Below, in pieces: positions 15,343 to 56,880 of a stretch of DNA of 64,000 nucleotides. Both the position numbers and the translations under genes were made by a program. The notes beneath the pieces are model-generated. The model searched no databases, had not been told where the DNA came from, and worked only from the letters and a program-made list of their open reading frames with translations. How positions within the stretch are numbered: position 1 is the first letter of the stretch; every line of letters begins with the position of its first letter. The DNA is from Anaerolineales bacterium. GTDB taxonomy: Bacteria > Chloroflexota > Anaerolineae > Anaerolineales > UBA4823. The DNA lies in contig JBJYXV010000063.1 in the NCBI GenBank assembly GCA_046260155.1, forward strand, positions 105,037-169,036. The letters run 5' to 3'.

Positions 15343-15362
15343 AAAGCGTATTCGTTTATTAG

Positions 15363-37473: not shown

Positions 37474-38172
37474 TTATGATCCTAATTGGGAGTCTCTGCG
37501 AAGAGATATGAACACCATGTAGCAGATGATCAAGAAAGCGGTGATGATGCTGGTAAACCCATAGAAATTTAGATTACTTAATGGATTGACCGCGCGCACA
37601 GCAACATCGAGGAGAATTTCCTTTGGAGAAAAGAATATATCCCAACTGTTCCAGCCTGAGAAGCGACCAAGATAAATCCCGATGCTGGCTAAGATGAGGG
37701 CACTTCCAACGAAAAGCCAGCTTGGCAGCCAACCAAATTGGTTTTTTACCAGCAGCTGCATTGTCCTCAAAGAAGCGATTGCTAAGAAAAATCCTGTCCA
37801 GGCAAAAGCAGCCAGCATGATGATGTCATACCAGATTGGAATTCCCGGACGCTCCTTCAGGTGGAGGAAATCGGTGATGATATAAGGTGCGTTGGGAAAG
37901 AATAGCAGCCAGAAAAATCCAGGAATCAATACTACCCACTTGCTGTCTGGTCTGGCAATATAAAGCCCAGCAGCCCAAAGGCTGAATAAGAATGGCAACC
38001 AGGCCAAAAATAGGTTCCAAATTAAATTGGTGTATGCAAAACTATAACTTTGAATCACACGTGCTGTGAACAAAGCCAGGGCAAAGATTGTGGATAAGAT
38101 AATCGGATAAAGAGTTTGATTTGCCAGGAATTGGTGTAATTTTTCAAATTTAGCGATCAAGTTCTGCATCAT
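37474..38172 (-). CDS. DUF1361 membrane protein
   Basis: WNLFLAW.P, WLLFFPNAPYI.TD, GIYLGRF..WNSWD. Confidence 0.9.
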   Translation of the reverse strand: MMQNLIAKFEKLHQFLANQTLYPIILSTIFALALFTARVIQSYSFAYTNLIWNLFLAWLPFLFSLWAAGLYIARPDSKWVVLIPGFFWLLFFPNAPYIITDFLHLKERPGIPIWYDIIMLAAFAWTGFFLAIASLRTMQLLVKNQFGWLPSWLFVGSALILASIGIYLGRFSGWNSWDIFFSPKEILLDVAVRAVNPLSNLNFYGFTSIITAFLIICYMVFISLRRDSQLGS

Positions 38173-38659
38173 CTGCCTCCTAGGTAGGGCTAATTGCAGA
38201 ATTTCTATTGAAAATCGTTTTTAGAATATTTTCAAATGGCGGTAAGTTCCAATCGGAGGTTCTTATTATATGCGAAAAAGATCACGGTCCTGCTCCAAAA
38301 TGTATTTCTAAAAATACTTTAATAGAGGGGTTGTGCTAAAATTCAATTGCGGTTGTTCCAGCTAAGATATTGGTCGACCGTTCTGCTGAGCAAAATGACT
38401 TTTACAAGGAAATTTCGAGTGTTTATCGACTCGAGGAATGAATTAGCAGTACACGCCGAAGGTAAAATCTAATTATTAAGCTAGTCGATAAAATCGTCCA
38501 AATAGAGATAAAATCGCACAATTTCTTTGGCATTATTAGTTTTTTTGTTACGACCTGCGTGATGTGGATTTGATTTTCCCGAATCCCATCCGGGTAGTGA
38601 ATTTTTTGAGCAGAAAATAATGGTGAGACGCGAAGGGAAGGTCCAAGTTACCACGCAGC

Positions 38660-39304
38660 ATGAAAAGAAAACCTGAACATGATCAAAAATTTACACCGTT
38701 GTGGTTAGAGTGGGCACGGGAGATCCAGGCGATCTCGCAAACCGGTCTGCACTACGCTGAAAATGATTATCAAATCCAGAGGTATTCACGTTTATTAGAA
38801 ATATCCGCGCAGATCATCAGCAGTTTTTCTGACCTGGAATATCGGGATTTAGTCAGAATTTTCAACCACCAAATCGGGTATGCAACTCCGAGAATTGATG
38901 TGCGCGGGGCAGCATTCCAGGCAGGTAATTTGCTGATGGTGAAAGAAAGTCTAGATGGCGGCTGGACGATGCCAGGTGGTTGGGTCGATGTGGGTGACAC
39001 ACCTTCCGGTGCCGTTGAGCGTGAAATGTATGAAGAATCGGGTTTTGTGGTTAAGGCTCGGAAAATTATCGGTGTTTATGACGCAAACCGCAGCGGTCCA
39101 CTGGAAGTATTCCACGCATTTAAGATCGTTTTCCTGTGTGACATTCTTTCAGGCGAAGCACGGACCAGTGAGGAAACCTCCGACGTAAAATTTTTTTCCA
39201 GAAACGAACTACCCGAAACATTGTCAGGGGAAAGAACAAAACCACGCCATCTTGAAGATGCATTTAACGCATTACTGGATGAGCGACCGACATATTTTGA
39301 TTGA
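38660..39304 (+). CDS. Nudix hydrolase with N-terminal helical domain (YjhB-like)
   Basis: WAREIQAISQTGL.Y, GYATP.IDVR, PGGW.D.GD......REMYEESG. Confidence 0.92.
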   Translation: MKRKPEHDQKFTPLWLEWAREIQAISQTGLHYAENDYQIQRYSRLLEISAQIISSFSDLEYRDLVRIFNHQIGYATPRIDVRGAAFQAGNLLMVKESLDGGWTMPGGWVDVGDTPSGAVEREMYEESGFVVKARKIIGVYDANRSGPLEVFHAFKIVFLCDILSGEARTSEETSDVKFFSRNELPETLSGERTKPRHLEDAFNALLDERPTYFD

Positions 39305-39306
39305 CT

Positions 39307-39780
39307 ATGGAAATGACTCTGGTTCCTTTCAAAGTCCCTGGAAAGATATTCCGCAGTGCGATGCCTTACAGCCGTTATGATCCGCAGGGGATGCTGATTC
39401 CGGCTTATACGGAGAACAAGATTTCGATGGTCGTGATGTTGTCGAGTGATGAAGAGGCAGTAAGGATCACTGGACGTGATTTGACGAAAATCTACGAATC
39501 TGAAGGATTCGAAGTGGTCCACCTGCCGATTCAGGATTTTGGAATACCAGAAATATCAAGAATCCGGGAGGTCATCTCGATCGTCGCTTCCCACTCAGAA
39601 TCGGGCGGTAATGTGGCAATCCATTGCCATGCGGGAGTGGGGCGCACTGGTATGTTCCTGGCTTGCTTGGCAAAAATTACGAAGGGGTATTCACCAGAGG
39701 ACGCGATCAATTGGGTTCGTGAGTTTGTCCCGGGTGCAGTTGAAATCCCGGATCAAGAACGATTAGTGAGCATGGTGTGA
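39307..39780 (+). CDS. Cys-dependent (PTP/dual-specificity type) phosphatase
   Basis: PIQDF acid loop and HCHAGVGRTG P-loop. Confidence 0.92.
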   Translation: MEMTLVPFKVPGKIFRSAMPYSRYDPQGMLIPAYTENKISMVVMLSSDEEAVRITGRDLTKIYESEGFEVVHLPIQDFGIPEISRIREVISIVASHSESGGNVAIHCHAGVGRTGMFLACLAKITKGYSPEDAINWVREFVPGAVEIPDQERLVSMV

Positions 39781-39798
39781 ATTGGACGAGGTAATTTC

Positions 39799-41151
39799 AT
39801 GATCATTAAAAATGGAAAAATAATTACATGGGATGATCCATCTCAAATTTTGGAAAAACAAGCAATTCGAATTGCAGATGGTCTTATTGCAGAGATTGGT
39901 CCCCAGGATCAAGTAATCGCCGAGAACCCTGATCTGGTTCAGCTGGATGCGTCAGGTCAATACGTGATGCCCGGGAATATTTGCGCCCATACTCATTTTT
40001 ATGGTGCTTATGCCCGTGGATTGGCGATACCTGGACCTGCACCAAAAGATTTTCCGGAAATTCTGCAGAAGTTATGGTGGCCGCTGGATAAATCCCTGAA
40101 TATGGGTGATGTACGTGCATCTGCTGAAGTGATGTTGGTGGATGCGATTAAGAACGGTACTACAACGCTGTTCGATCACCACGCTTCGCCCAATGCAATC
40201 GATGGTTCGCTGGATGAAATTGCAGATGCGGTCGAAACAGCAGGGGTAAGGGCAGTTCTTTGTTATGAAGTCACAGATAGGGATGGGAAAGAAAAAGCAC
40301 AGGCTGGTATTCGGGAAAATTTACGCTTTCAGAATCGATTAAATTCCGGTGATTTTTCAAGATCGAGAATAGCTGCCACATTTGGTTTGCATGCCAGCTT
40401 GACGTTATCCGAGGAGACCCTGGATGCTTGTCGAGCAGCTCAATCTGCAGGTGAGGGTTTTCACATCCACGTGGCTGAGCATGAATCTGATGAGTATGAT
40501 AGCTTGGGGAAATCGGGATTACGAGTGGTCGATCGTCTCGCAAAACACGAAATATTGGGATCGAAAACAATTGTTGCCCATGCCGTTCACATTGATATCA
40601 AGGAAGCTCGAAACCTGGCAGATACAGGCACTTGGGTGACCCATCAACCGCGTTCAAACATGAACAATGGCGTTGGGGTTGCACCTATTGAGGGATTGCT
40701 GCGCGCGGGGATAAAGGTCGGGATTGGAACAGATGGTTTCAGTCATACCATGTGGGATGAATGGAAGACAGCCTATCTGCTGCATAAAGTCTGGAATCGT
40801 GATCCACGACGTTTTACAGGGATGGATGCAATCCAGCTTGGAGTTTATAATAATGCAGCATTAGCAAATAAATTCTTTTCACAAGCAGCTCATGGTCGGA
40901 TAACACCAGGGGCGGTCGCCGATATTATCTTTGTAGATTATCATCCCCATACTCCTTTGACCCCGGGAAATCTTCCCTGGCAAATCATATTTGGATTTAA
41001 TGAAAGCATGGTTACCACGACAATCGTAGCAGGAGAGATCTTGATGAAGGATCGAAAACTGCTAACCCTTGATGAAGAAAAGATCACCTTCAATGCACGC
41101 CAAAGAGCTCCTGAAGTATGGGCTCGCTACAACACTTTTGTACCAATTTAA
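39799..41151 (+). CDS. ssnA: SsnA-family metal-dependent amidohydrolase
   Basis: CAHTHFY, LWW.LD, DHHASP, GLHAS.TL, HIHVAE, SNMNNGVG, GTDG. Confidence 0.88.
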   Translation: MIIKNGKIITWDDPSQILEKQAIRIADGLIAEIGPQDQVIAENPDLVQLDASGQYVMPGNICAHTHFYGAYARGLAIPGPAPKDFPEILQKLWWPLDKSLNMGDVRASAEVMLVDAIKNGTTTLFDHHASPNAIDGSLDEIADAVETAGVRAVLCYEVTDRDGKEKAQAGIRENLRFQNRLNSGDFSRSRIAATFGLHASLTLSEETLDACRAAQSAGEGFHIHVAEHESDEYDSLGKSGLRVVDRLAKHEILGSKTIVAHAVHIDIKEARNLADTGTWVTHQPRSNMNNGVGVAPIEGLLRAGIKVGIGTDGFSHTMWDEWKTAYLLHKVWNRDPRRFTGMDAIQLGVYNNAALANKFFSQAAHGRITPGAVADIIFVDYHPHTPLTPGNLPWQIIFGFNESMVTTTIVAGEILMKDRKLLTLDEEKITFNARQRAPEVWARYNTFVPI

Positions 41152-41159
41152 TCGGAGAT

Positions 41160-41831
41160 ATGATGACCGCAGACAAACCTTTACCTACTATTGCGATATT
41201 AGGCGGAACTGGCAACGAGGGTCCTGGATTAGCCTTGCGTTGGGCTAATCTCGGCTATCCAGTAGTGATTGGCTCTCGCCAGAAGGAGAAAGCTCAATCC
41301 ACAGCGGCGAAGTTAAACGAGCAGCTAGAGAGCAAAATAATAGAGGGTTTTGAGAACGGTGAAGCTGCTCGGAAAGCAGATATATGTATACTGACTGTGG
41401 TCCATACGGCACACCAACAAGCGATCGAGGGGTTGAAAGCAGATTTACAGGGAAAGATACTTGTGGATGCCACCGCACGGGTAGATTTTCGGAACCCGAA
41501 ACCCCCATCTCCTCCTTCCGCAGCGAGGATGGCGCAAGAGACATTAGGTCCGGAGGTGCGGGTGGTCGCAGCATTTCAAAATGTGCCCGCCGCAGCCCTT
41601 CACAAGAATCTTGATCGGCTGATTGAGGATGATGTACTGATCTGTGCGGATGATCCCAAAGATATCGAATTGGTCAGCGAATTAGTCCAAGCCCTGGGTA
41701 TGGGTGCCTACTATGCCGGGAACCTGGACAACGCGATCGTTGTCGAAGGATTGACATCGATATTGATCAGCATGAATAAGCATTATGGGAGTCGAACGGG
41801 TTCTATCCGGGTAAGTGGAATAAACAAATGA
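41160..41831 (+). CDS. npdG: NADPH-dependent F420 reductase
   Basis: IAILGGTG.EG.GLA.RWA, IGSR, AAFQNV.A, VEGLT..LI..N. Confidence 0.9.
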   Translation: MMTADKPLPTIAILGGTGNEGPGLALRWANLGYPVVIGSRQKEKAQSTAAKLNEQLESKIIEGFENGEAARKADICILTVVHTAHQQAIEGLKADLQGKILVDATARVDFRNPKPPSPPSAARMAQETLGPEVRVVAAFQNVPAAALHKNLDRLIEDDVLICADDPKDIELVSELVQALGMGAYYAGNLDNAIVVEGLTSILISMNKHYGSRTGSIRVSGINK

Positions 41832-41869
41832 TCACATTTAGGTTCCTATTCTCTTGAAAAATAGTCTGG

Positions 41870-42643
41870 TTGATTAACTTGCAGCTCAAACTAACACCTT
41901 TGGCTGGAATTCCGATCGTAAAACCAGGCGATGATTTGGCTGACCTGATCATTTCCACGTTGCAGCAAACCGGGATGCACCTTGAAGGGGGTGATATTTT
42001 GGTGATTGCGCAAAAAATCGTTTCCAAGTCAGAGGATCGTTTCGTCGATCTTGCCACTGTCTCTCCATCCGGGGCAGCATTGGAACTTGCTAAAGAAATC
42101 AACAAGGATGCGCGATTGTTAGAGTTGATCCTTCGAGAGAGTAAAGCGGTATTGCGCTTCCGTCCAGGCACGATCATCGTAGAACATAAATTGGGTTTCA
42201 TTTGTGCAAATGCGGGCATCGATCACTCGAATGTCAGTAAAGAGTTCAATTCAGATCAGTGGGTATTGCTGCTACCAGAAAATCCAGATCGTTCAGCGGC
42301 TTTGATCAGGGACAAACTTCAGGCATGGTGTTCCCAACAAATAGGGGTGATGATTATTGATTCTCACGGTCGTGCCTGGAGATTGGGCACGGTTGGGATA
42401 GCAATCGGATTTTCTGGTCTGCCCGGTCTGGTTGATTTGCGAGGTGATCCGGATTTATTTGGTCGTACCTTACAGGTCACCCAGGTCGGTGCCGCGGATG
42501 AATTAGCCGCGGCTGCATCACTTATAATGGGTCAAGCAGCCGAAGGTACTCCAATTGTCCATGTGCGTGGATTTCCTTATGCGCTGCGTGAAGGGTCCTT
42601 AGAAGAATTAATCCGACCCGAAGAAGATGATATGTTCCGGTAA
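41870..42643 (+). CDS. cofE: Coenzyme F420-0:L-glutamate ligase
   Basis: P.V.PGDDL, AQKIVSK.E.R, CANAGID.SN, LP.NPD, DSHGRAWR.G, ADELAAAA. Confidence 0.94.
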   Translation: MINLQLKLTPLAGIPIVKPGDDLADLIISTLQQTGMHLEGGDILVIAQKIVSKSEDRFVDLATVSPSGAALELAKEINKDARLLELILRESKAVLRFRPGTIIVEHKLGFICANAGIDHSNVSKEFNSDQWVLLLPENPDRSAALIRDKLQAWCSQQIGVMIIDSHGRAWRLGTVGIAIGFSGLPGLVDLRGDPDLFGRTLQVTQVGAADELAAAASLIMGQAAEGTPIVHVRGFPYALREGSLEELIRPEEDDMFR

Positions 42644-42722
42644 AAAACCAGGCTTGTACTAATGTGGTTAATACCGGATTGTTTATACCCAAATATCAAC
42701 CGGAAATAATTCGGGAATTCAA

Positions 42723-43070
42723 ATGGAAGCAGAATTCTGGGAAGCCTTGGAGAAATTCGTAGCATCCAAATCAATCGTCATTGATCGACCGAAAGGATCT
42801 ACACACCCGCGATTTCCGGGGGTGATATATCCATTGGATTACGGCTATTTAAAGGATACAAAATCCACAGACGGGGCTGAAATTGATCTTTGGTTAGGCT
42901 CAAGGAGGTTAAAAAATATTGACGGAATCTTGGTGACAATAGACCTCCAGAAAACTGATCTGGAAATCAAGCTGCTGATCGGTTGTTCGGAGGATGAAAT
43001 GTATGAAATTCTAAATTTGCAAAATTCCGGTCAAATGCGTTCAATCATTGTTAAAAGAGGAGATATATGA
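42723..43070 (+). CDS. Short family-I-like inorganic pyrophosphatase
   Basis: IDRPKGS.HP, YPLDYGY, DG..ID. Confidence 0.75.
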   Translation: MEAEFWEALEKFVASKSIVIDRPKGSTHPRFPGVIYPLDYGYLKDTKSTDGAEIDLWLGSRRLKNIDGILVTIDLQKTDLEIKLLIGCSEDEMYEILNLQNSGQMRSIIVKRGDI

Positions 43071-43471
43071 GTATAAAGGATATTCCGGAATCACATATTG
43101 ACTTGGTGAGAGACGATGTTTTGTCTTATGCTTATCTGGCAACGATTATGCCTGATGGGACGCCCCAGTTGAGTCCAGTTTGGTTCAATACAGATGGAGA
43201 ACACTTATTGATCAATTCTGCAAAAGGCAGGGTTAAAGATCGGAATATGCGCACTAGGCCTAATGTTGCTGTGGTAGTTCATCTGCAGGAACAACCTTAC
43301 CGGTATATTCAATTTCGCGGCAAAATCGTTGGGATAACAGAAGAGGGCGCCAGACAGCACATCAATAATTTATCAGGGAAATACACCGGCAATTACGAAT
43401 ATCAGCTCAACGATCCTGATGAAGTCCGGGTGATGTACAAGCTGCTTCCGGAACATATCCAGGTGATGTGA
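43067..43471 (+). CDS. PPOX-class (split beta-barrel) putative F420-dependent oxidoreductase
   Basis: LAT..PDG.PQ.SPVW, R.K.RN....P.V, L..KY; ATGA overlap with the upstream gene. Confidence 0.88.
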   Translation: MSIKDIPESHIDLVRDDVLSYAYLATIMPDGTPQLSPVWFNTDGEHLLINSAKGRVKDRNMRTRPNVAVVVHLQEQPYRYIQFRGKIVGITEEGARQHINNLSGKYTGNYEYQLNDPDEVRVMYKLLPEHIQVM

Positions 43472-43553
43472 CGAAATCGTTGTTGGAAGTTTATGGGAAT
43501 TAGCCATCAATGAAGACAATTGATCATCATAATTTCTTGGGAGGCAAGTGGTT

Positions 43554-44516
43554 ATGAAAGTGGTCGCATTGGCAGGTGGTGTGGGAGGAGCGAAACTCGT
43601 TGATGGCCTGGCGCAGGTCCTGCCAGAGGATTCTCTCACGGTGATCGTCAACACAGGAGATGATTTCGAACATTTGGGTTTGCGAATTTGTCCTGACCTT
43701 GACACCGTTTGCTACACGCTTGCTGGGATCGCAAATCCTGTAACAGGCTGGGGGCGTGCAGGAGAAACATGGCATGCATTGGAAGCAATCGATCAGCTGG
43801 GTGGACCAGCGTGGTTTCGGTTGGGAGATTATGACCTTGGGGTTCACCTGGAGCGTACCAGATTGTTATCCATTGGAAAAACTCTGAGTCAAATCTGCCA
43901 ACATTTTTGTTCAATCTGGGAAATTAAACCCCATGTCTTGCCGATGAGCGATTACCAGGTTGCAACCATTGTTCATTCGGATGAAGGGGATTTACCCTTC
44001 CAGGATTACTTTGTAAAGCGTAGATGCGAACCCCAGGTGTCCGGATTCAGTTTTGAGGGGGCAGGACAAGCAAATCCTGCTCCTGGTGTCCTGGAAGGAA
44101 TAAACAATGCTGATTTGATCGTGATCTGCCCTTCAAATCCTTGGGTAAGTATTGATCCGATCCTTGCGGTTCAAGGAATAAAAAGCGCCATTGTTAATCG
44201 TGATAATGGAACCCCGGTGATCGCTGTATCACCAATCATCCAGGGGAAAACCATCAAAGGCCCTGCAGCAAAAATGTTCTCAGAACTGGGAATAAATCCT
44301 TCGGCAAGTAACGTTGCAAAACATTATGGATCGCTACAGGAGAGAGGTTTCCTGTCTGGTTTTGTGATTGATGATTTAGATGTTAATGAGCGCGCATCCA
44401 TCGACAAATTGGGGTTGAGTTCAATTGTAACGAACACCATAATGAAAACTGAGGAGGATAGGAAAGAACTTGCAAATGTTATTCTCCGTTATGCTGGTTT
44501 GCATTTTGAGTTGTAA
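43554..44516 (+). CDS. cofD: 2-phospho-L-lactate/PEP transferase (FbiA)
   Basis: LAGGVGGAK, NTGDD, PDLDT..Y.L, WF.LGD.D, PSNP.VSI.PIL, KGPAAK. Confidence 0.95.
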   Translation: MKVVALAGGVGGAKLVDGLAQVLPEDSLTVIVNTGDDFEHLGLRICPDLDTVCYTLAGIANPVTGWGRAGETWHALEAIDQLGGPAWFRLGDYDLGVHLERTRLLSIGKTLSQICQHFCSIWEIKPHVLPMSDYQVATIVHSDEGDLPFQDYFVKRRCEPQVSGFSFEGAGQANPAPGVLEGINNADLIVICPSNPWVSIDPILAVQGIKSAIVNRDNGTPVIAVSPIIQGKTIKGPAAKMFSELGINPSASNVAKHYGSLQERGFLSGFVIDDLDVNERASIDKLGLSSIVTNTIMKTEEDRKELANVILRYAGLHFEL

Positions 44517-44647
44517 CTATCAGTAATTAAATTTTAATATCCCATGAAAATAACAAAAATAATTAGTTAAAAATTCTATATGGCTGTTATACTGCTTTTG
44601 GTATGTCCATCAATTCCAAGAAAACATTCAAAAGAAAGGAATAACAA

Positions 44648-45262
44648 ATGACCTTCTGGGCGATCGTTCCGGTTAAGCCCTTGCGCAGGGGAAAATCACG
44701 TCTTGCGCAGGTTTTATCTGAGGAAGAGCGTTTAGGTCTGAACAGCCAATTATTGATCCATACCGTGGATACCTTAAGAGAAATACCGGCGATCGAGCAG
44801 GTGCTGGTTGTGAGCCGGGATCAATCTGCTCTGGCACTCGCCCGTGCTCACGGAGCAAGAACCGTTCAAGAGAATGGGGCCCCTGAACTGAACGTTGCAT
44901 TGACCCGGGCAACGATAGTAGCTAAGCAGTATGCAACCAGGGGAGTACTGATAATTCCATCAGATTTACCGATGATCTCCAAAGAAGATATCAGTGCGAT
45001 GATTGGAATGGTCAAGGAACCTCCTGTCGTTGTGGTTGCACCGGATCGAAAGAGAGAAGGAACGAATGCCTTGCTGGTCTGTCCAGTGGGTCTGATAGAG
45101 TATGATTATGGTCCACATTCATTTGAACGGCATTGCTTGAGAGCCCAAGAAGTTGGAGCGCGATTAGAGATATGTGACCTCCCTTCCCTGGCGCTGGATA
45201 TGGATGTTCCGGAGGATCTGGAATTGGTTAGCGATGAATTGGGAAGCTGGTCTACCAGTTAA
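44648..45262 (+). CDS. cofC: 2-phospho-L-lactate/PEP guanylyltransferase (FbiD)
   Basis: AIVPVK....KSRL, LN.AL, DLP, PD....GTN.L, SF..H, D.D.PEDL. Confidence 0.94.
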
Positions 45263-45300
45263 AATATTGGAAATATATCTACGATAGTGCGGAGGTAAAG

Positions 45301-46296
45301 ATGGCGAATCGGGTGGCTTTATATTTACAAGATGCTCATGAGCTACGAGATGGATTGGAGTATGCCCGTTATGCTGAGGAGCAAGGATTCGAGGCAGTCT
45401 GGCAGGCTGAATCGCGGCTGGTGAGGGATGCAATTGTCCCGATGGCAGCTTATGCCGCAGTGACAGATCGAATCAAAGTTGGGTCTGGGGTGATTAACAA
45501 CTGGACGCGCAACATTGGATTGTTGGCTGCGACATATTTGACACTTGATGACTTGGCACCGAATCGCGTTATTTGCGGGATTGGAGCCTGGTGGGACCCG
45601 CTGGCAAGAAATGTGGGTATCGATCGCAAGAAACCACTCACCGCGATGCGAGAAACAGTTGAAATTTTGCGTCGCCTGTTGAAATTGGAACGCGTCACCT
45701 ATCATGGTGAATTCGTCCACGTCGATGGAATCGAGCTAGATGTGGTCCACGGCCGCAGAGAACCCAGGAATGTCCCGATCATGATCGGCGCAACTGGGGA
45801 TAAGATGATGGAGCTTACCGGTGAGATTGCAGATGGTGTGGTTCTTAATTATTGTGTGCCTCCCGCTTACAACGACCGTGCCCTGGAGCTGTTGGAAAAA
45901 GGTGCCAAAAGAGCAGGCCGGTCACTGGATGATTTGGATCGTCCCCAGTTAGTGGTTTGTTCGGTTGATCTCGATCGTGATAAAGCCATCGACAATACCC
46001 GAAAATTACTGACACAATATCTTGCACAACAACCGCACATCGCCAAGGCATCCGGGGTGTCATCGGATATCGTAAGTGAAATCCAGACCATTCTTGGTTG
46101 GCCGGCAACCAAGGAGCAGATAGATAAGGCGAAGCACCTGGTCCCAGATGAATTAATCGATCACATTACAGCCTCAGGGACTCCAGAAGAAGCTCGTTTA
46201 AAGGTCGATGAATATCGCAAACATGGTTGCACTTCACCAATCCTTTATTCGGTTGGAGGAGATGTCAAGCTGCTGATTGATACTTTTGCGGAATAA
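45301..46296 (+). CDS. LLM-class (Mer-like) putative F420-dependent oxidoreductase
   Basis: AE..GF..VW, T.RI.VGSGV.N, GIGAW, PI.IGATG..M.....ADG; directly follows cofC. Confidence 0.88.
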
Positions 46297-46334
46297 GGTT
46301 AAGCACATTCCGTTGCTCAATTTTTAAACATGTG

Positions 46335-46417
46335 ATCGTGATCTCGTTAGGTGTATCAGCCATCCAGGGGTTGCCTTAGAAAAGAGGGTCAACCCCTGAT
46401 TAGTTCTTGATCACGAT
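46335..46417. repeat. Long nested inverted repeat downstream of the LLM gene
   Basis: ATCGTGATC/GATCACGAT outer stem and CAGGGGTTG/CAACCCCTG inner stem. Confidence 0.6.
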
Positions 46418-46584
46418 TTATGATTACCGGGAAGGGATCTGTAAATCACATCTGGGCTCACATATGTTTCTAGATCCCGCAAATGCTTTCAAGAAATCCT
46501 GTAACTGTTCAATTCAAAATATCGCTCAACTTGGTGTGGTTCTAATCCAATCTTTCATCTGCTGAGCATAGTATAATTTTGTTG

Positions 46585-47082
46585 ATGAGCACCGAAGAAA
46601 GACAATCGCAGCTGCAGCCCAACTCCAGGCATTGCTTTGTGTGTGGGTTAGAAAATCATTATGGTCTGAAGCTGCGTTTCATTGAGACTGGACCGGGCGA
46701 AGTAACAGCCTATTATACAGTTCCAGAACATTTCCAGGGCTATCCGGGTGTTGTTCATGGGGGTATCGTCACTGCAATGTTGGATGAAGTCACCGGACGG
46801 GCCCATATGAGCAGTGAACATACACGCTTCATGTTTACTGCAAAAATTGAGATTCGATTTCGAAAGAACGTCCCGATCGGTCAGCCGCTCAAAATTGTTG
46901 GTTGGGTCGAGAAATCGAAGAGCAGGATAGCGTCAAGTATCGGGAAAATATTCGGACCAGAGGGCGACGTACTGGCAGAGGCAAAAACTTTACTCGTCGA
47001 CCTCCCCGAGGATGAACTCCGCGATGTGGATTTAGAGGCACTTGGTTGGAAAGTCTATGAGAATGAAGATAGTAGCAATTAA
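46585..47082 (+). CDS. PaaI-type hotdog thioesterase
   Basis: CFVCG..N..GL, QGYPGVVHGG....LDE. Confidence 0.9.
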   Translation: MSTEERQSQLQPNSRHCFVCGLENHYGLKLRFIETGPGEVTAYYTVPEHFQGYPGVVHGGIVTAMLDEVTGRAHMSSEHTRFMFTAKIEIRFRKNVPIGQPLKIVGWVEKSKSRIASSIGKIFGPEGDVLAEAKTLLVDLPEDELRDVDLEALGWKVYENEDSSN

Positions 47083-47095
47083 TTAGGATTGATGA

Positions 47096-47857
47096 ATGAT
47101 CATTGAATATTATCGTCCCAAGGATGTTGACGAGACATTGGAACTCTTAGAAAATCAAGATATCGCGCCTATCTTGATGGGGGGAGGGACAGCTATCGAT
47201 CGATTCAAGACCGAACCCATGTCTGTTATCGATTTGCAGGATGTGGGTTTAGGTAAAATCCGTGGAAAGGGAAATTTTCTTGAGATCGGGGCCATGGTAT
47301 CCCTTCAATCCTTGTATGAAGAAACCAGGGTATTGGTTGAATTAAGGGAAGTGATCCTGAGGGAAGCGACGCACAACTTGAGGCAGGTAGCCACCGTTGC
47401 CGGCACCATGATTGTATCGAATGGGCGGTCACCTTTCATCTCCGCGCTGCTTGCTCTGGATGCATCGGTCACTTTGCTGCCTGATGAGCATACGGTACCT
47501 CTCAGCGACCTGCTCCTGATGCGTGGAAAAATAATGGGATCAAAACTGATCACAAAGATCACCATCCCCTTGAACGTCCAATTGGCTTATAAAGAGGTGA
47601 CCCGGTCACCAGCAGATTTACCAATTATCTGTGCGGCTATTGCTGTTTGGCCAGCTGGTCGCACCCGAGTAGTATTGGGTGGTTACGGAGAGTCTCCAGC
47701 GCTGGTATTTGATGGACCTGAAAGGGGAGGCGAGCAGGAAGCTGCAACGGATGCGTATAGCCACGCAGGTGATGAGTGGGCTTCTGCTGAATACAGGCGC
47801 GAGGTTGCACCAATATTGATCAGGCGCTGTTTCTCCCATTTGGAAGAGGAAAATTAA
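47096..47857 (+). CDS. FAD-binding subunit of a Mo hydroxylase (YgfM-like)
   Basis: MIIEYYRP, GGGT, IGA, R..AT.AG, AS.EYR; precedes xdhD-like gene. Confidence 0.82.
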   Translation: MIIEYYRPKDVDETLELLENQDIAPILMGGGTAIDRFKTEPMSVIDLQDVGLGKIRGKGNFLEIGAMVSLQSLYEETRVLVELREVILREATHNLRQVATVAGTMIVSNGRSPFISALLALDASVTLLPDEHTVPLSDLLLMRGKIMGSKLITKITIPLNVQLAYKEVTRSPADLPIICAAIAVWPAGRTRVVLGGYGESPALVFDGPERGGEQEAATDAYSHAGDEWASAEYRREVAPILIRRCFSHLEEEN

Positions 47858-47889
47858 TAACGAGATCAGGATTTCACCGGTGATTTGCG

Positions 47890-50800
47890 ATGAAAATATA
47901 TCTGACGATTAATGGAAAAACACAGCAGGTTGAAATTTTACCTGGCGCCAGTTTGTTAAATACTCTGCGCTCAATGGGTTTTGTCGGTGCAAAGCATGGC
48001 TGTGAAACCGGAGAATGCGGGGCATGTACCGTGTTGCTGGATTCCCGCCCGATTAATGCCTGTGTATTTCTAACCGCCCAGGCAGAAGGTCATGTTATTG
48101 AAACGATTGAATCAATGGGAGAACATCCAGAGCAGGGATGGAAAACCACTACTGGTCTGCATGCTCTTCAGGAAGCTTTTGTCGAGAGCGGTGCAATTCA
48201 ATGTGGCTATTGCACCCCCGCCATGCTGTTGGCTGCAAAAGAACTCCTTGACCGGAATGAGAATCCGAGTGAAGATGATGTACGAGAGGTTTTCTCCGGG
48301 ATTTTATGTCGTTGTACAGGCTATCTAAAACCGGTTCAAGCAGTTCTGAGAGCAGCTGCTGCCGCCCGGGGGGAAGCAATCGAACCGATAGATGGTAAAT
48401 TAGAATCTCCACCGGATTGGTTTGGTCATGATGCAAACCTTTCTCCTGGTACTGGTAACATCCCAGATGAGGTAAAAGGAGACGAGATTTATGGTGGGGA
48501 GGTGATTGCACCGGCAAAGGTTATGCCGCGAATAGAGCTAACCCCTGAAACCGAAGGCTGGCACCGGGTGGGTAAACCAGAGGTAAAAGTCGATGCTGTT
48601 AAGCTGGTTCAAGGTAAACCCGCTTTTACAGCTGATTACGATCGCCGGGGTATGTTGGTTGCGAAAGTACTGCACAGTCCAATTGCACATGCTCGAATAA
48701 AGAACATTGATAAATCCAAAGCGGAACAACTGCCAGGAGTTGCGGCTGTCCTCACTTGGCGAGATATCCCGCGGGTGGCGTACTCAACCGCAGGGCAGTC
48801 AGATCCCATACCCGGGCCATTAGATTCATTTTCCCTGGATAATAAAGTCAGGTTTGTTGGAGATCGAGTAGCCTTTGTTGCCGCTGAAACTGAGCAGATA
48901 GCGCTCAGTGCTCTTGAGCTGATCGAGGTTGAATATGAACCTCTCGAAGCGATCCTCGATCCGCAAAAAGCCCTTCAACCAGGTGCACCAATCATCCATG
49001 ACGAACCAGAGTATGTGGATTTTGCAGAATCAGATGCGACCAGAAATTTAGCCGCCGAAATCCGCATCGATATTGGGAATGTCGAGCAGGGTTTCGTGGA
49101 AGCAGATTTTATCTACGAAGGGGAGTATGAGGTCCCAAAAGTTCAGCAAGCGCATATTGAACCTCATGTATCGGTTTCTTATTGGGATGAGGATGATCGG
49201 TTGGTTATCGTCTCGAGCACCCAGGTACCTTTTCACGCCCGGCGCCAGCTGGCACCCGTATTGGGTTTACCGATCAAGCGGATACGGGTGATCAAACCTC
49301 GCATTGGTGGTGGATTTGGAGGGAAACAGGAGATATTGAGCGAGGATGTAGCTGCTCACCTCACTATTGCAACGGGAAAACCGGTGATCTATGAATACAC
49401 GCGAGAAGAAGAATTCATCGCGGCCAGATCACGCCATCCAATGCGAATAAAAATGAAGACCGGGGTTAAAGCAGATGGCACGATTACGGCGAATGCGATG
49501 TATGCCCTATCGGATACCGGTGCTTATGGTGGTCATGCGCTCACAGTGACTGGCAATACAGGGCACAAAGCGATGGCTCTATATGTGGGTGATGGCAAAT
49601 ATCGCGAGTCCCCGAATATCCAATTTTATGCAGATATTGTGTATACAAACCATCCACCGGCTGGGGCCTACCGTGGTTATGGGGTCCCCCAGGGATTTTG
49701 GGCAGTTGAAAGGCACATGGAGAAAATTGCCCGAGATCTGAAATTGGATCCAATCGATTTCCGCTTGAAAAATACGTTACGGCAGGGAGAACTGCAGCCG
49801 TTCAGCACTGCCTGGAGTGAAGGAAGGGAACCGCAACCGGAAGTGATTGCTACCTGTGCATTAGATCAGTGTGTTCAACAAGGGAAAGCAGCACTGGGTT
49901 GGGATCAAAAATTTAACAATACGCAGTGGAAAGCAGTACCTGGAAAGCCATATCTTAAACGCGGAGTAGGTGTTGCTCTCGTCATGCAGGGAACCGCAAT
50001 ACCATACCTGGATATGGGAGGGGCAAGCATAAAAATGAATGATGATGCTTCGTTTAATCTCCTGGTAGGCGCAACAGATTTGGGCACCGGGTCTGATACA
50101 GTTCTTGCTCAAATGGCAGCTGAGGTTTTAGGAGTGGGTGTGGATGACATCCTCGTCTATTCCTCGGATACAGATTTCACTCCTTTTGATAAAGGTGCCT
50201 ACGCATCGTCGACGACTTACATTTCCGGCGCAGCAGTTGTTCGCGCTGCTGAAGCAGCTGCAGAGAGGATTAAATCACGCGCAGCAAGCATGTTTAATGA
50301 GGATAGCGAGGAAGGACCGCTGGATGCCGGAGATATCCAATTGGTTAATCGCCAAGCAGTCTCTCCTGATGGACGCACAATTTCACTGAAAGATATCGCT
50401 CTTGAAACCCTTCATCACAAAGATCAGGAACAAATCATGGGGATTGGCTCATTTATGTCTCCCGTAGCTCCTCCTCCATTTGCCGCCCAATTTGCTGAGG
50501 TAACGGTGGATGTCGAGACAGGGCAGGTCGTGGTTGATAAACTGGTGATGGCGGTTGACTCAGGTGTGATCATAAATCCATTGACAGCTTCTGGTCAGAT
50601 CGAAGGTGGCATGACCCAGTCGCTTGGGTATGCAGTCAGCGAAGAGATGGTTTACGATGATAAAGGATACCCAAGGGAAACAGATCTTCGAGATTACCAT
50701 ATTTTTCACGCCCACGAAATGCCGGAATTAAGCACAATCTTCGTTGAGACCTTTGAACCCTCTCACCCATTTGGGGTGAAGGCGGTTGCTGAGATTCCCA

Positions 50801-50913
50801 TGGATGGCGTAGCACCAGCAGTCGGTAACGCAGTATTCGATGCGGCAGGGGTGAATATTGATCAGAACCCGATCACACCAGAAAAAATCTGGCTTGCGCT
50901 TCAGAAAAAATGA
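47890..50913 (+). CDS. xdhD: Fused 2x[2Fe-2S]-molybdopterin hydroxylase (XdhD/YgfN-like)
   Basis: GCETGECGAC, QCGYC, CRCTGY; GGGFGGKQ, AYRGYG, AYASS, K.VAE. Confidence 0.85.
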   Translation: MKIYLTINGKTQQVEILPGASLLNTLRSMGFVGAKHGCETGECGACTVLLDSRPINACVFLTAQAEGHVIETIESMGEHPEQGWKTTTGLHALQEAFVESGAIQCGYCTPAMLLAAKELLDRNENPSEDDVREVFSGILCRCTGYLKPVQAVLRAAAAARGEAIEPIDGKLESPPDWFGHDANLSPGTGNIPDEVKGDEIYGGEVIAPAKVMPRIELTPETEGWHRVGKPEVKVDAVKLVQGKPAFTADYDRRGMLVAKVLHSPIAHARIKNIDKSKAEQLPGVAAVLTWRDIPRVAYSTAGQSDPIPGPLDSFSLDNKVRFVGDRVAFVAAETEQIALSALELIEVEYEPLEAILDPQKALQPGAPIIHDEPEYVDFAESDATRNLAAEIRIDIGNVEQGFVEADFIYEGEYEVPKVQQAHIEPHVSVSYWDEDDRLVIVSSTQVPFHARRQLAPVLGLPIKRIRVIKPRIGGGFGGKQEILSEDVAAHLTIATGKPVIYEYTREEEFIAARSRHPMRIKMKTGVKADGTITANAMYALSDTGAYGGHALTVTGNTGHKAMALYVGDGKYRESPNIQFYADIVYTNHPPAGAYRGYGVPQGFWAVERHMEKIARDLKLDPIDFRLKNTLRQGELQPFSTAWSEGREPQPEVIATCALDQCVQQGKAALGWDQKFNNTQWKAVPGKPYLKRGVGVALVMQGTAIPYLDMGGASIKMNDDASFNLLVGATDLGTGSDTVLAQMAAEVLGVGVDDILVYSSDTDFTPFDKGAYASSTTYISGAAVVRAAEAAAERIKSRAASMFNEDSEEGPLDAGDIQLVNRQAVSPDGRTISLKDIALETLHHKDQEQIMGIGSFMSPVAPPPFAAQFAEVTVDVETGQVVVDKLVMAVDSGVIINPLTASGQIEGGMTQSLGYAVSEEMVYDDKGYPRETDLRDYHIFHAHEMPELSTIFVETFEPSHPFGVKAVAEIPMDGVAPAVGNAVFDAAGVNIDQNPITPEKIWLALQKK

Positions 50914-50963
50914 AGCATGAATTGATGCTATCGGAAAGAGAGACTAGTCAAGAAAAGAGGCGA

Positions 50964-52307
50964 ATGTCCAAGATTTACGTTATCGGTCATGTTAACCCTG
51001 ATACTGACTCAATCGCTTCAGCTATGGGATATGCCTGGTTCTTGCACGAGCTGAATGGTGAGGATATAGAGGCAGCCAGGGCAGGCCCAGTAAATCCTCA
51101 AACCAGTTGGGTGCTGAAGAGATTGGCCATGGACGCTCCAATCTTAATCAATGATGCATCCCCAAAATTTGAGTCTGTATCTGTCCGCTTGGATTCCACT
51201 GCTCCGGACGAACCATTAAGAACAGCCTGGGCTATTGCCAGTCGAACCTGGGGAGTAGCCCCGATCGTAAAGGAAGATGGTACACCCTATGGTTTGGTCA
51301 ACGGGCCCAGTTTGTTTGCCTTGCTGAGCACTCTTGTTGGACCTCATCCTCGTAGCCAGGAAATGCAGCTATCAGATATTCTGGATTTACCTTGCCGAGA
51401 TGCAGCGAGTACCAACATACCCAGTTTTCAGGGATCAAGCCGGATCAGAGATTCATTATTGAGAATTTTACGGGCTGAGGGAGATGATTTCTGGGTTGTA
51501 GATGGCCAGGGCAAGTACATCGGTGTCTGCAGACAGCGGGAGGTACTCAATCCACCACGCTTAAGATTGATCCTGGTTGATCACAATGAGCCGAACCAGG
51601 CGATTGGGGCATTAGAAGAAGCTGAGCTGGTTGAGATTCTTGACCACCACCGGCTGGGAAATAATTCAACCCATGTTCCCATTCGGTTTACGATCGATGT
51701 GGTTGGCAGCACCAGTACCCTGGTTACAGAGCGAATTCATGAATCTGGTCTGAGTGCACCACCCGATTTAGCTGGATTATTGCTGGCAGGGTTATTATCA
51801 GACACATTATTGTTTCACTCTCCAACAACCACTGATCGGGATAAAATTGCTGCAGAACGCCTGGCTCGCTGGGCATTTATCACTGGATCTCCATTAGAGG
51901 GAGAATCAGTAGACTCTTATGGCCAGCAGGTAATCAAGGCAGGGTCTGGTATTACAAGTCGTGAACCCGACCAGGTAGTGAGTAATGATATCAAGGTGTA
52001 CCAAGCCGGTGGGCTGGATTTTGCAATTGCCCAGGCCGAGGTGACTGATCTGCTTCTGCTCAAGGAGCAGTTACCCTCGTTGAAACAAGCGCTCTTTGAT
52101 CTCAAGGATAAACGTGGATTGGATTTCGCCATGTTGATGGTGACGGATGTTGTGGGAGGATCGAGCCGGTTGCTCCTCACTGATGAGCTACCGCTCCTGG
52201 GGGATTTGCCTTACCCGAAATTACCTGATGGCACCCTGATGGCTGAAGATGTCGTATCCCGGAAAAAGCAACTTTTACCGGTGGTCCTCGGGCTGCTCGA
52301 AAGCTAA
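50964..52307 (+). CDS. ppaC: Family II Mn-dependent pyrophosphatase with CBS-like insert
   Basis: GH.NPDTDSI, LVDHNE, DHH, SDTL.F.SPT.T, SRKKQ. Confidence 0.88.
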   Translation: MSKIYVIGHVNPDTDSIASAMGYAWFLHELNGEDIEAARAGPVNPQTSWVLKRLAMDAPILINDASPKFESVSVRLDSTAPDEPLRTAWAIASRTWGVAPIVKEDGTPYGLVNGPSLFALLSTLVGPHPRSQEMQLSDILDLPCRDAASTNIPSFQGSSRIRDSLLRILRAEGDDFWVVDGQGKYIGVCRQREVLNPPRLRLILVDHNEPNQAIGALEEAELVEILDHHRLGNNSTHVPIRFTIDVVGSTSTLVTERIHESGLSAPPDLAGLLLAGLLSDTLLFHSPTTTDRDKIAAERLARWAFITGSPLEGESVDSYGQQVIKAGSGITSREPDQVVSNDIKVYQAGGLDFAIAQAEVTDLLLLKEQLPSLKQALFDLKDKRGLDFAMLMVTDVVGGSSRLLLTDELPLLGDLPYPKLPDGTLMAEDVVSRKKQLLPVVLGLLES

Positions 52308-52331
52308 CTCACTATATAGGATCGGGTATTT

Positions 52332-53108
52332 ATGTCTATCTGGCAGGCGATAGCAGATCTTGAAGAGAAACATGAAGCAGGAGTGCTGTGCACGATCATT
52401 CGCAGTCAGGGATCTACTCCACGTCATGCAGGCAGCAAGATGCTGGTCTATGCTGATGGGAATATAATTGGAAGTGTAGGAGGAGGGGAATTAGAAAGGA
52501 GGACGATCTCTGCAGCACTCGACCTCATGCTGATCGGTAGACCGGGTTGGTTGGATTACAACTTGAGCGAACCTGAACTGGGAGACCCTGGTGTGTGTGG
52601 GGGTCAAGTGGAGATTTACATGGAACCAATTATTCCTAAGCCAACGCTAGTGGTTGTCGGTGCAGGTCATGTAGGACAAGCAGTCGCCCATCTGGCGCAT
52701 TGGTTGGATTTTCGGCTGGTGATCAGCGACGATAGACCAGAATTTTGCACGCCAGAGAATATCCCCAACGCTGATCAATATTTTCCCATCCCATTACCAG
52801 AATTCACAGAAAAATTTAAGATTACACCCTGGACATATCTCGTACTGACCACGCGCAGTGTGGATGTTGATGTCCCGGGATTACCCGGGATACTCAGTTC
52901 TCCCGCAGCTTACATTGGAGTGATTGGCTCGCGGCGTCGATGGGAAACAACGCGCAAGCAGCTGGAAGAAGCGGGGATTAAACCAGAAAAAATAAATCGA
53001 GTCCGATCTCCAGTTGGTATTGAAATCCATGCAGAAACTCCTCAAGAAATCGCAGTCAGTATTATGGCAGAGATTATTCAAATCAGGCATGCAAGTGAGG
53101 CCACATGA
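52332..53108 (+). CDS. XdhC/CoxI-family Moco insertion chaperone
   Basis: GSTPR..GSKM, GSVGGG..E, CGG, GAGHV, YIG.IGS, ETP.EIA.SI.AE. Confidence 0.92.
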   Translation: MSIWQAIADLEEKHEAGVLCTIIRSQGSTPRHAGSKMLVYADGNIIGSVGGGELERRTISAALDLMLIGRPGWLDYNLSEPELGDPGVCGGQVEIYMEPIIPKPTLVVVGAGHVGQAVAHLAHWLDFRLVISDDRPEFCTPENIPNADQYFPIPLPEFTEKFKITPWTYLVLTTRSVDVDVPGLPGILSSPAAYIGVIGSRRRWETTRKQLEEAGIKPEKINRVRSPVGIEIHAETPQEIAVSIMAEIIQIRHASEAT

Positions 53109-53189
53109 TTAAATTTGGGTTGCTGCGAATTGCAGTCTTGAACTTCCTGTGGACCAGCTTCAGTCGATCAAGTATTTATGGAGATGCTC

Positions 53190-54635: not shown

Positions 54636-54636
54636 G

Positions 54637-54990: not shown

Positions 54991-55016
54991 CGAATTCATA
55001 AAGGTTATCCCTCTGT

Positions 55017-56714: not shown

Positions 56715-56821
56715 ATTGTTGGGGATGTCATTAATACAAAAGCAGGGGAAAGCCAGCAATCCAATTTGGGCAGAAGGGATTGCAGGTACTCTCGAAATCC
56801 ACGAGATACGGAATACCACAG

Positions 56822-56863: not shown

Positions 56864-56880
56864 ATGAAAGGGAAGGTTGA

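Follow-up and report, generated by a model that had tools for sequence, protein, structure and literature searches.

A candidate F420-dependent 2,8-dioxopurine reductase encoded among ssnA, F420 supply and molybdenum hydroxylase genes in Anaerolineales

A 64,000-nucleotide stretch of DNA from an Anaerolineales bacterium (Chloroflexota; GenBank assembly GCA_046260155.1, contig JBJYXV010000063.1, positions 105,037 to 169,036 of the forward strand; hereafter the window) carries a gene cluster at 39799-50913 in which F420 supply genes and the gene of a luciferase-like (LLM) oxidoreductase lie within an ssnA...ygfM-like/xdhD-like gene order. The cluster is probably part of the anaerobic reductive purine/urate route, known as the 2,8-dioxopurine or 'yanthine' pathway, in which the LLM would act as an F420H2-dependent 2,8-dioxopurine reductase (probability about 0.62). 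An initial annotation, made from the window's letters, had proposed that the LLM takes the place of YgfK, and this proposal has come through the comparative tests described below: YgfK is missing, the gene linkage is conserved, the LLM and SsnA co-occur, and the LLM is complementary to YgfK. The same idea is already in print as an independently reached prediction by Li et al. (2025, Life Metab; PMC12507026). The present analysis adds phylogenetic-profile evidence, a case of co-loss, evidence excluding a PPOX-class protein as the partner of SsnA and an apparent absence of Fo synthase from much of the phylum.

In Escherichia coli, XdhD-YgfM converts urate to 2,8-dioxopurine in vitro, YgfK and SsnA convert 2,8-dioxopurine to ureidomethyl-hydantoin in vitro with NAD(P)H, and HyuA, YgeW or UacY, YgeY and YgeX complete the route to pyruvate (passages of PMC12507026). 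The same pathway is set out by Liu et al. (bioRxiv 10.1101/2025.04.24.650524), who identify YgfK as an NADPH:2,8-dioxopurine oxidoreductase; neither F420 nor Chloroflexota is mentioned in the available parts of that preprint. The route as outlined in the initial annotation, with a molybdenum (Mo) enzyme reducing urate, YgfK reducing the ring and SsnA opening it, agrees with both 2025 papers. In the available text of Li et al., the exchange of an LLM for YgfK in Chloroflexota is offered as a prediction only, in two sentences and a network panel, on the basis of an SsnA similarity network and 15-gene neighbourhoods (PMC12507026). A literature search for F420 together with SsnA or yanthine returned only Li et al. 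(2025) and the preprint of that paper, and found no test of the prediction.

The window corresponds to contig C63 of a 4.6-Mb assembly that is 93% complete (genome G000), and its genes were identified from a listing of open reading frames (ORFs) together with Pfam and NCBIfam profile scans judged against curated cut-offs (Table 1). Scores above the curated cut-offs were obtained for SsnA, NpdG, CofE, CofD, CofC, the PPOX-class protein, YqeB and YqeC, whereas no equivalog cut-off is reached by the LLM, the flavin adenine dinucleotide (FAD) subunit or either Mo subunit. Between the TAA stop codon of ssnA (41149-41151) and the ATG of npdG at 41160 lie 8 nt, which include the sequence GGAG. The order given in the initial annotation, from ssnA through npdG and cofE to cofC, the LLM and the FAD and Mo subunits on one strand, was found exactly as described, although the list had left out a hotdog-fold gene (46579-47082). 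The pyrophosphatase of that annotation exists as a 115-residue ORF, which belongs to no family above threshold and has only a sub-threshold InPase match, along with local matches to family I pyrophosphatases at E of about 0.4. The features that define the variant of Li et al. are present, with a PF00296 gene seven genes 3' of ssnA, inside the 15-gene neighbourhood, and neither YgfK (IPR017701) nor a linked gene of the UacX family (PF01180). The co-directional plus-strand array overruns both ends of 39799-50913, running from the Nudix gene at 38660 to at least 54635.

Conservation of this arrangement was assessed around the 80 best SsnA relatives in contigs from one genome per species, using tblastn of the window proteins; each gene is counted relative to the number of loci whose flank is long enough to show it. 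All 80 relatives come from metagenome-assembled genomes labelled Anaerolineales, Anaerolineae or Chloroflexota, with SsnA identities of 65-83%. The npdG gene lies directly 3' of ssnA in 74/76 loci, and cofE (67/70), cofD (50/56) and cofC (51/56) also follow ssnA. An LLM gene occurs on the same strand within 10 kb 3' of ssnA in 40 of the 47 full-flank loci, and in 45/53 when at least 8 kb of flank is accepted. Recurrence in dozens of species-level genomes argues that the arrangement is not due to chance, and the linkage of the LLM and cof genes to ssnA is thus conserved in relatives. Across 47 related loci, LLM identities range from 77 to 88%, and the LLM is the most conserved of the gene set, with a mean column identity of 87% compared with 78% for SsnA in the same species. 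Other genes 3' of ssnA recur in fewer loci, including the PPOX gene (28/56), the 115-residue ORF (18/56), the hotdog gene and FAD subunit, which travel together (14/47 each), and an orthologous Mo subunit of at least 60% identity (9/47); a different FAD/FeS and Mo pair lies 5' of ssnA in 19/56 loci. On the 5' side, the Nudix gene is found just upstream on the same strand in 32 of the 74 loci whose upstream flank extends to 1.5 kb or more, and the PTP-like phosphatase gene in 17/77.

The gene order varies in several genomes. In G218 it is npdG-cofE-PPOX-cofD-cofC-ssnA-LLM, placing the sole SsnA gene directly 5' of the LLM (L111, 9120-10418). There are two SsnA paralogues in G112, one heading the npdG-cof operon and the other directly 5' of the LLM (L112, 8392-9690 and 18139-19464). 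In G040, the LLM has an NpdG-like gene as its neighbour and is separated from the ssnA cluster by 178 kb. G225 and G129 each have an isolated LLM gene and encode SsnA in a canonical YgeW-YqeA-YgeY-SsnA-Mo-hydroxylase cluster. The co-occurrence of the LLM and SsnA in both linked and unlinked genomes indicates that their association is independent of physical linkage.

The distribution of these genes across the phylum was profiled in one evenly drawn set of 301 Chloroflexota genomes, used in every search. The LLM clade was delimited by a gap between at least 63% (63-100%) and at most 52% identity, and SsnA by a gap between at least 403 and at most 300 bits. On these definitions the LLM clade is present in 46 genomes and as a contig-end fragment in one more (G100), SsnA in 56 genomes and as fragments in two (G091, G190), and CofD in 190. 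Every one of the 47 LLM-clade genomes also has SsnA and CofD, and the LLM clade occurs in none of the 140 genomes that are CofD-positive and SsnA-negative. The 47 include the unpublished genome G145, without which LLM-SsnA co-occurrence is 46/46; the CofD and PPOX tallies include G145, G227, G173 and G038. YgfK exceeds its cut-off in seven of the 301 genomes, with an eighth at 789 bits, and the LLM is present in none of these. Across these 301 genomes, the LLM therefore co-occurs strictly with SsnA and is complementary to YgfK.

Further information comes from the 11 genomes with SsnA but no LLM. Two of them (G002 and G015) carry YgfK and have no CofD, and five others (G012, G061, G025, G049 and G037) likewise have no CofD. 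Another genome without CofD, G289, encodes directly after ssnA a 682-residue protein (L107, 10669-12717) that resembles the N-terminal 400 residues of YgfK and has 4Fe-4S motifs. In G084 an FMN_dh protein (PF01070, 429.5 bits) is encoded near ssnA together with two PALP enzymes (L104, 10145-13853), and ORFs of the same sizes and places occur near ssnA in G147. The FMN_dh protein of G084 and the YgfK-N-like protein of G289 may be further alternative 2,8-dioxopurine reductases.

A natural co-loss of ssnA and the LLM is seen in G130, a 100% complete genome of the same order, which has CofD but neither SsnA nor the LLM. Its locus (L119, 6385-13024) reads M20 (minus strand), npdG, cofE, cofD, cofC and DHH, with gaps of 348 nt and 110 nt where relatives carry ssnA and the LLM.

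The statement in the initial annotation that no ygfK lies in the window was correct, and the search of the 93%-complete genome also returned no YgfK (TIGR03315) reaching the cut-off; the best score was 255 bits compared with 835.3 required, and covered positions 443-895, the GltD-like part. The DHO_dh family, which includes UacX and PydA, gave two weak matches (50.5 and 30.8 bits) on other contigs, neither linked to the cluster. Thus, no alternative reductase is evident in the genome from the YgfK and DHO_dh searches.

The LLM belongs to the Bac_luciferase TIM-barrel fold of the LLHT proteins and is closest to known F420-dependent members. Its top NCBIfam matches are all F420-class LLMs, each under its own cut-off, and the best are Mer models; it falls short of both (TIGR03555 and NF002619), with 175.3 bits against 348.7 and 177.7 against 276. 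By sequence, its closest relatives of solved structure are Mer enzymes (phmmer E 6e-41), followed by Fgd. An AlphaFold model built with 47 orthologues has a pLDDT (predicted confidence) of 89.6, and in a Foldseek search F420-dependent LLMs (Mer, Fgd and Adf) occupy every rank down to 23 among the matches listed, Mer reaching a TM (structural similarity) score of 0.86 at 25-29% identity, with monooxygenases dependent on flavin mononucleotide (FMN) ranking lower. Invariant residues of the LLM include E37-S38-R39 and R42. Complex prediction for SsnA and the LLM with two alignments gave a score of 0.00 in both runs and counts neither for nor against binding.

The SsnA match is full-length (residues 1-445) and exceeds both curated cut-offs. 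The protein is 33% identical over its full length to E. coli SsnA, the one enzyme for which conversion of reduced 2,8-dioxopurine to ureidomethyl-hydantoin has been demonstrated, and an alignment of 44 orthologues shows no variation in its metal-ligand columns (HxH, His and Asp). SsnA orthologues of 48-51% identity are encoded in canonical YgeW-YqeA-YgeY-SsnA-Mo-hydroxylase clusters of other Chloroflexota families. These features suggest that the window SsnA is the ring-opening hydrolase for reduced 2,8-dioxopurine.

The FAD subunit of the Mo hydroxylase is 25% identical to E. coli YgfM, and the YgfM model TIGR03312 is its best match although below cut-off. The fused FeS/Mo subunit scores 704.1 bits with XdhA_XDHase (cut-off 780) and 685.6 bits with XdhD TIGR03313 (cut-off 1101.9) and is 39% identical to E. 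coli XdhD; its orthologues of 53-61% identity occur in or at SsnA clusters of other Chloroflexota families. In the available text of Li et al. (PMC12507026), the formation of 2,8-dioxopurine is suggested to depend on Glu606 of E. coli XdhD, which is absent in XdhA. In a mafft alignment this residue sits in an XdhD insertion missing from XdhA, and the insertion with an aligned Glu606 is present in the window fused subunit, in a paralogue on contig C17 and in the SsnA-linked subunits of G084, G129 and G289; the second Mo subunit of the window has Ala in this column. The paralogue is a second XdhD-type fused FeS/Mo subunit at C17:9768-12647 (minus strand), 48% identical to the window subunit and 34-36% to E. 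coli XdhD, and tblastn detected no recognisable pathway neighbours around it.

Genes for the maturation of selenium-dependent Mo hydroxylases, YqeB and YqeC, are present in the window above their cut-offs. A selenocysteine tRNA gene (30943-31035, minus strand, 69.8 bits) is located 9 kb before the start of the cluster. These genes and the SelB gene of contig C77 indicate that selenium is used as selenocysteine and, probably, as the labile selenium cofactor of Mo hydroxylases.

In the proposed scheme, the selenium-dependent Mo hydroxylase formed by the YgfM-like and XdhD-like subunits, matured by XdhC, YqeB and YqeC-MocA, would reduce urate to 2,8-dioxopurine. The LLM would then transfer a hydride from F420H2 to the purine, probably to C6 of the C6=N1 bond because the published SsnA product, ureidomethyl-hydantoin, carries C6 as CH2. 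Reduction of C=N bonds is a usual reaction of LLMs that depend on F420H2, Mer among them. SsnA would hydrolytically open the reduced ring, NpdG would regenerate F420H2 from NADPH, and CofC, CofD and CofE, encoded between ssnA and the LLM, would build F420 from Fo. Later steps would be supplied by contig C77, through a hydantoinase, carbamoyltransferases with carbamate kinase, and pyridoxal phosphate (PLP) enzymes. The substrates of the LLM and the Mo enzyme, the use of F420 by the LLM and the direction of NpdG are predictions from sequence comparison.

The cofC, cofD, cofE and npdG genes are single-copy in the genome and all lie at this locus. No match to CofH was obtained in the genome, and CofG was found neither there nor in 38 of the 41 genomes of the order. 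CofG was detected in 33 of the 301 Chloroflexota genomes compared with 190 for CofD, and in four LLM genomes (G210, G016, G040 and G100), leaving 43/47 in which it was not found. The gap could reflect uptake of Fo, an unrecognised Fo synthase or a limit of search sensitivity. The words 'scavenge' and 'salvage' do not occur in the passages of a review of F420 that were available (PMC8498797). The idea that F420 is private to this cluster was rejected, given seven PF00296 and three FDOR-A genes in the genome.

A wider scenario, which is rather doubtful as a whole, would combine scavenged Fo, tail assembly controlled together with purine catabolism, dearomatisation by the LLM and phosphorolytic ureido cleavages. 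Anaerolineales and most of the sampled LLM-carrying Chloroflexota would build F420 from Fo scavenged from, for example, methanogen or actinobacterial neighbours, and the tail-assembly genes would stand under the same control as purine catabolism. The borrowed deazaflavin would drive a direct hydride dearomatisation of 2,8-dioxopurine, a cofactor-free TIM barrel of 36 kDa doing the work of an Fe-S flavoprotein of 115 kDa. Two phosphorolytic ureido cleavages, by the C77 carbamoyltransferases and carbamate kinase, would replace YgeY and raise the ATP yield.

The remainder of the purine route can be traced in part. Among the downstream enzymes named in the initial annotation, a HyuA-type hydantoinase is clearly encoded in the genome (495.6 bits, cut-off 393.25; 37% identical to E. 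coli HyuA), and a YgeW-like carbamoyltransferase is weakly matched (176.6-178.5 bits against a cut-off of 500; 34% identity to E. coli YgeW). In the same genome, homologues of YgeX (best 38.5 against 532.25 bits) and YgeY (no tblastn match at 1e-8) were not found. A carbamate kinase is present (376.2 bits, cut-off 358.25), with 52% identity to E. coli YqeA. The M20 peptidase at 36053-37429 was considered as a YgeY and rejected, as it passes the dipeptidase model NF006053 (499.4 against 441 bits) and E. coli YgeY has no match in the genome at 1e-8. A second purine-catabolic cluster lies outside the window at C77:1-31000 (L097, L098; Table 1). An Amidohydro_3 protein (356.6 bits) near its hydantoinase could be UacY-like. 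Since this cluster encodes two carbamoyltransferases but no homologue of YgeY or YgeX, phosphorolysis might account for the removal of both ureido groups, and the PALP enzymes adjoining ssnA in other lineages suggest that non-orthologous enzymes take the last steps.

Several observations weigh against the assignment of the LLM as the 2,8-dioxopurine reductase. The perfect co-occurrence, for which no statistics are given, overstates the support because related genomes are not independent, and three genomes with both SsnA and CofD have no LLM orthologue (G044, 96% complete; G084, 86%; G147, 87%). The LLM scores below every curated NCBIfam cut-off, and Mer, its nearest characterised relative, is a C1-pterin enzyme. 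Its use of F420 rather than FMN is predicted from similarity and from the operon context with npdG and cofCDE, and the substrate proposed for the clade is suggested by indirect, comparative support. Six other PF00296 genes and three FDOR-A genes are present in the genome, and the LLM does not adjoin ssnA in G225, G129 and G040. Furthermore, homologues of YgeX and YgeY were not found, so that orthology does not explain how the pathway ends.

These observations leave some room for other explanations. It is unlikely that the LLM serves the purine route at a different step or intermediate, such as another oxopurine, a ring-opened product or an oxidative direction feeding F420H2, while an unrecognised enzyme is the true 2,8-dioxopurine reductase. 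Such a role would be compatible with a substrate predicted by comparison, with the other redox genes beside ssnA in G084 and G289, which show the reductase step to be evolutionarily plastic, and with GltD/YgfT-like genes on contigs C74 and C77 of this genome. However, the complementarity with YgfK and the joint loss with SsnA in G130 fit the YgfK step best, and an F420-reducing role for the LLM is unneeded since NpdG already supplies F420H2. It is very unlikely that the locus is a plain operon for F420 biosynthesis in which the LLM has a housekeeping role, for instance as a Mer-like C1-pterin reductase, and ssnA and the Mo hydroxylase are neighbours by descent. The LLM clade is missing from the 140 CofD-positive, SsnA-free genomes; G130 kept the cof genes and npdG when ssnA and the LLM were lost; the LLM accompanies SsnA even where unlinked (G225, G129 and G040); and the LLM scores fall about 100-170 bits short of the Mer cut-offs. 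Against these stand the single-copy cofC, cofD and cofE at the locus, the position of Mer as best characterised match, and other likely F420 users in the genome, by which the operon would serve more than the cluster.

Two remaining explanations assign the key role to other partners or another pathway. FDORs typically reduce activated double bonds in heterocycles, and the PPOX-class FDOR-B protein is encoded in the same operon and passes its F420-PPOX cut-off, so that it, and not the LLM, might be the F420H2-dependent purine reductase. Its distribution makes this highly improbable, because the gene is found in only half of the related loci and, at E of at most 1e-25, in 44/301 genomes without an orthologue gap, including 20 of the 47 LLM/SsnA genomes. 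Moreover, none of the eight genomes of family f3 has PPOX whereas seven of them carry SsnA and the LLM, and 24 of the 44 carriers are without SsnA at similar identity (a count that includes the unpublished G145 and G227). The PPOX-class protein was accordingly rejected as the SsnA-coupled partner on genome distribution. It is scarcely credible that SsnA and the LLM serve salvage or remodelling of the deazaflavin (Fo/F420) instead of purine catabolism. This would explain why ssnA heads an F420 tail-assembly operon in a genome where, with no CofG or CofH found, Fo would come from elsewhere. Nevertheless, SsnA passes its curated equivalog cut-off, its orthologues elsewhere in the phylum reside in canonical uricolytic clusters, an XdhD-type Mo enzyme and selenium-cofactor genes share the array, and CofG is scarce phylum-wide, which does not single out the LLM clade.

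The features of the window and of the C77 cluster are collected in Table 1. An M20 dipeptidase gene (36053-37429, minus strand) and a gene for a DUF1361 protein (37474-38172, minus strand) lie on the opposite strand 5' of ssnA, and both recur in this orientation (20/53 and 14/53 related loci, respectively). The second enzyme of xanthine dehydrogenase (XDH) type has the DUF6909 gene, a minus-strand aminotransferase gene and a 169-residue ORF between its FAD/2Fe-2S and Mo subunits.

Table 1. Genes of the window, with strand and supporting profile matches, and the contents of the second purine-catabolic cluster
Feature	Position	Strand	Evidence or remark
Nudix hydrolase (Nudix_N + NUDIX)	38660-39304	+	PF12535, PF00293; heads the co-directional array
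Dual-specificity/PTP-like phosphatase	39301-39780	+	DSP-PTPase families, best PF22785 57.4 bits; 4-nt overlap with Nudix gene
SsnA amidohydrolase	39799-41151	+	NF005540 498.8 bits (cut-off 444); TIGR03314 461.6 (cut-off 455.5)
NpdG/Fno NADPH-dependent F420 reductase	41160-41831	+	TIGR01915 180.8 bits (cut-off 149.8)
CofE, F420-0:gamma-glutamyl ligase	41870-42643	+	TIGR01916 266.9 bits (cut-off 180.65)
115-aa ORF, weakly pyrophosphatase-like	42723-43070	+	PF18823 InPase 18.5 bits, under 26.8 cut-off
PPOX-class (FDOR-B, Rv1155-like) F420-dependent oxidoreductase	43067-43471	+	TIGR03618 98.1 bits (cut-off 79.05)
CofD, 2-phospho-L-lactate transferase	43548-44516	+	TIGR01819 306.9 bits (cut-off 257.45)
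CofC, 2-phospho-L-lactate guanylyltransferase	44648-45262	+	TIGR03552 158.3 bits (cut-off 105)
Luciferase-like (LLM/LLHT) F420-type oxidoreductase, 331 aa	45301-46296	+	PF00296 223.9 bits
Hotdog-fold thioesterase-like protein	46579-47082	+	PF03061 36.7 bits; between LLM and FAD subunit
FAD-binding subunit of Mo hydroxylase (YgfM-like)	47096-47857	+	PF00941 82.5 bits; TIGR03312 83.4 (cut-off 241.5)
Fused 2Fe-2S + molybdopterin subunit (XdhD-like), 1007 aa	47890-50913	+	Fer2, Fer2_2, Ald_Xan_dh_C, MoCoBD_1/2
DHH-DHHA2 protein (family II pyrophosphatase-like)	50910-52307	+	PF01368, PF02833; NCBIfam Mn-dependent diphosphatase models all sub-cut-off
XdhC-family Mo-cofactor insertion factor	52332-53108	+	PF13478, PF02625; TIGR02964 125.7 bits, under 161.6 cut-off
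FAD + 2Fe-2S fused subunit of second XDH-type enzyme	53178-54635	+	FAD_binding_5, CO_deh_flav_C, Fer2, Fer2_2
DUF6909 protein, 565 aa	55017-56714	+	737.3 bits
Aminotransferase	56881-58230	-	ORF listing and family scans
Mo subunit of second XDH-type enzyme (PucD-like)	59000-61228	+	TIGR03196 569.7 bits, under 783.65 cut-off
YqeB, selenium-dependent Mo cofactor maturation	61267-62085	+	TIGR03309 305.5 bits (cut-off 220)
YqeC-MocA fusion (selenium cofactor biosynthesis + Mo cofactor cytidylyltransferase)	62100-63464	+	TIGR03172 168.2 bits (cut-off 73.05); TIGR03310 159.4, under 186.45 cut-off
8-oxoguanine deaminase, adenine deaminase, GntR regulator, BMP-type ABC transporter, SelB	contig C77 cluster		8-oxoguanine deaminase 700 bits
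ATCase-like and OTC/YgeW-like carbamoyltransferases, carbamate kinase, two PALP-fold PLP enzymes, HyuA-type hydantoinase	contig C77 cluster

Searches for regulatory elements gave little. A promoter and terminator scan of 38000-57000 was uninformative, with fewer sites than in shuffled sequences (23 vs 28.2 and 12 vs 16.0), and Rfam returned no riboswitch or other RNA family at 37300-59200 even at E of at most 1. Over the whole window, only the selenocysteine tRNA, a further tRNA and a thiamine pyrophosphate (TPP) riboswitch reach the Rfam gathering scores, all far upstream of the cluster; the riboswitch lies at 15239-15349 (minus strand). In two runs of rhizosphere metatranscriptomes, short contigs (at most 400 nt) covered 25 of 30 bins of 38000-57000. 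In library X1, 32 of 34 aligned contigs were at least 99% alike to parts of the cluster, with few in X2 (window 38634-54483). These matches may hint at a soil or rhizosphere habitat and possible expression, although neither transcription nor its strand or operon structure can be read from such contigs, none of which spans a gene junction by 31 letters.

The value of the analysis lies in stronger comparative support for the exchange and in a well-defined enzyme clade. If the proposed function is true, primary purine catabolism would gain its first step that depends on F420, and dearomatisation a third unrelated solution after YgfK and UacX. It would also give F420 a physiological role in very abundant anaerobic Chloroflexota of soils, sediments and digesters, and offer a small Fe-S-free reductase for engineered uricolytic strains.

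The available text of the article by Li et al. (2025; PMC12507026) contains no description of the npdG-cofE-cofD-cofC genes embedded in the cluster, of co-occurrence at the level of genomes, of a co-loss or of the missing Fo synthase. Mer (PDB 8QPL and 1Z69) shares the fold and the F420-LLM class with the window LLM and acts on a bicyclic N-heterocycle; however, its W-I-T-D-H-Y-N-N-R-N residues are replaced in the LLM clade by a different ten, of which nine are invariant across 47 orthologues, and the genomic context of the LLM is purine and not C1 metabolism. The coupling logic is that of bacterial Fno/NpdG-dependent systems, in which electrons pass from NADPH through Fno and F420H2 to a substrate reductase (passages of PMC8498797), but it is tied here to purine catabolism, whereas the table in the available part of that review concerns antibiotic and xenobiotic transformations. 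The initial annotation had also named F420-type LLMs clustered with pyrimidine hydrolases in actinobacteria as a precedent, which the literature search aimed at it did not confirm. That search returned only a putative F420/FMN oxidoreductase, for which genetic evidence indicates reduction of the C5-C6 bond in the uracil of mureidomycin (passages of PMC10714638).

The Clostridioides difficile variant of the pathway uses UacX (PydA-like, PF01180) and UacY (PF07969) (passages of PMC12507026), demonstrating that a reductase unrelated to YgfK can take over its step; in contrast, no convincing DHO_dh/UacX homologue is present in this genome, the best match being unlinked at 50.5 bits. The Clostridium sporogenes 2,8-dioxopurine pathway comprises DOPDH, DOPOR (equivalent to YgfK), SsnA, HyuA, YgeW/YqeA, YgeY and YgeX. 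With this pathway and the ygfK-ssnA-ygfM-xdhD cluster of E. coli, the window has in common SsnA, an XdhD-type subunit, a YgfM-like subunit and YqeB/YqeC/MocA. The window cluster differs from the E. coli type in having no YgfK and in carrying F420 supply genes inside the cluster, and the reductase step, taken by an Fe-S flavoprotein of about 115 kDa in the E. coli type, has a 36-kDa TIM-barrel F420 candidate here.

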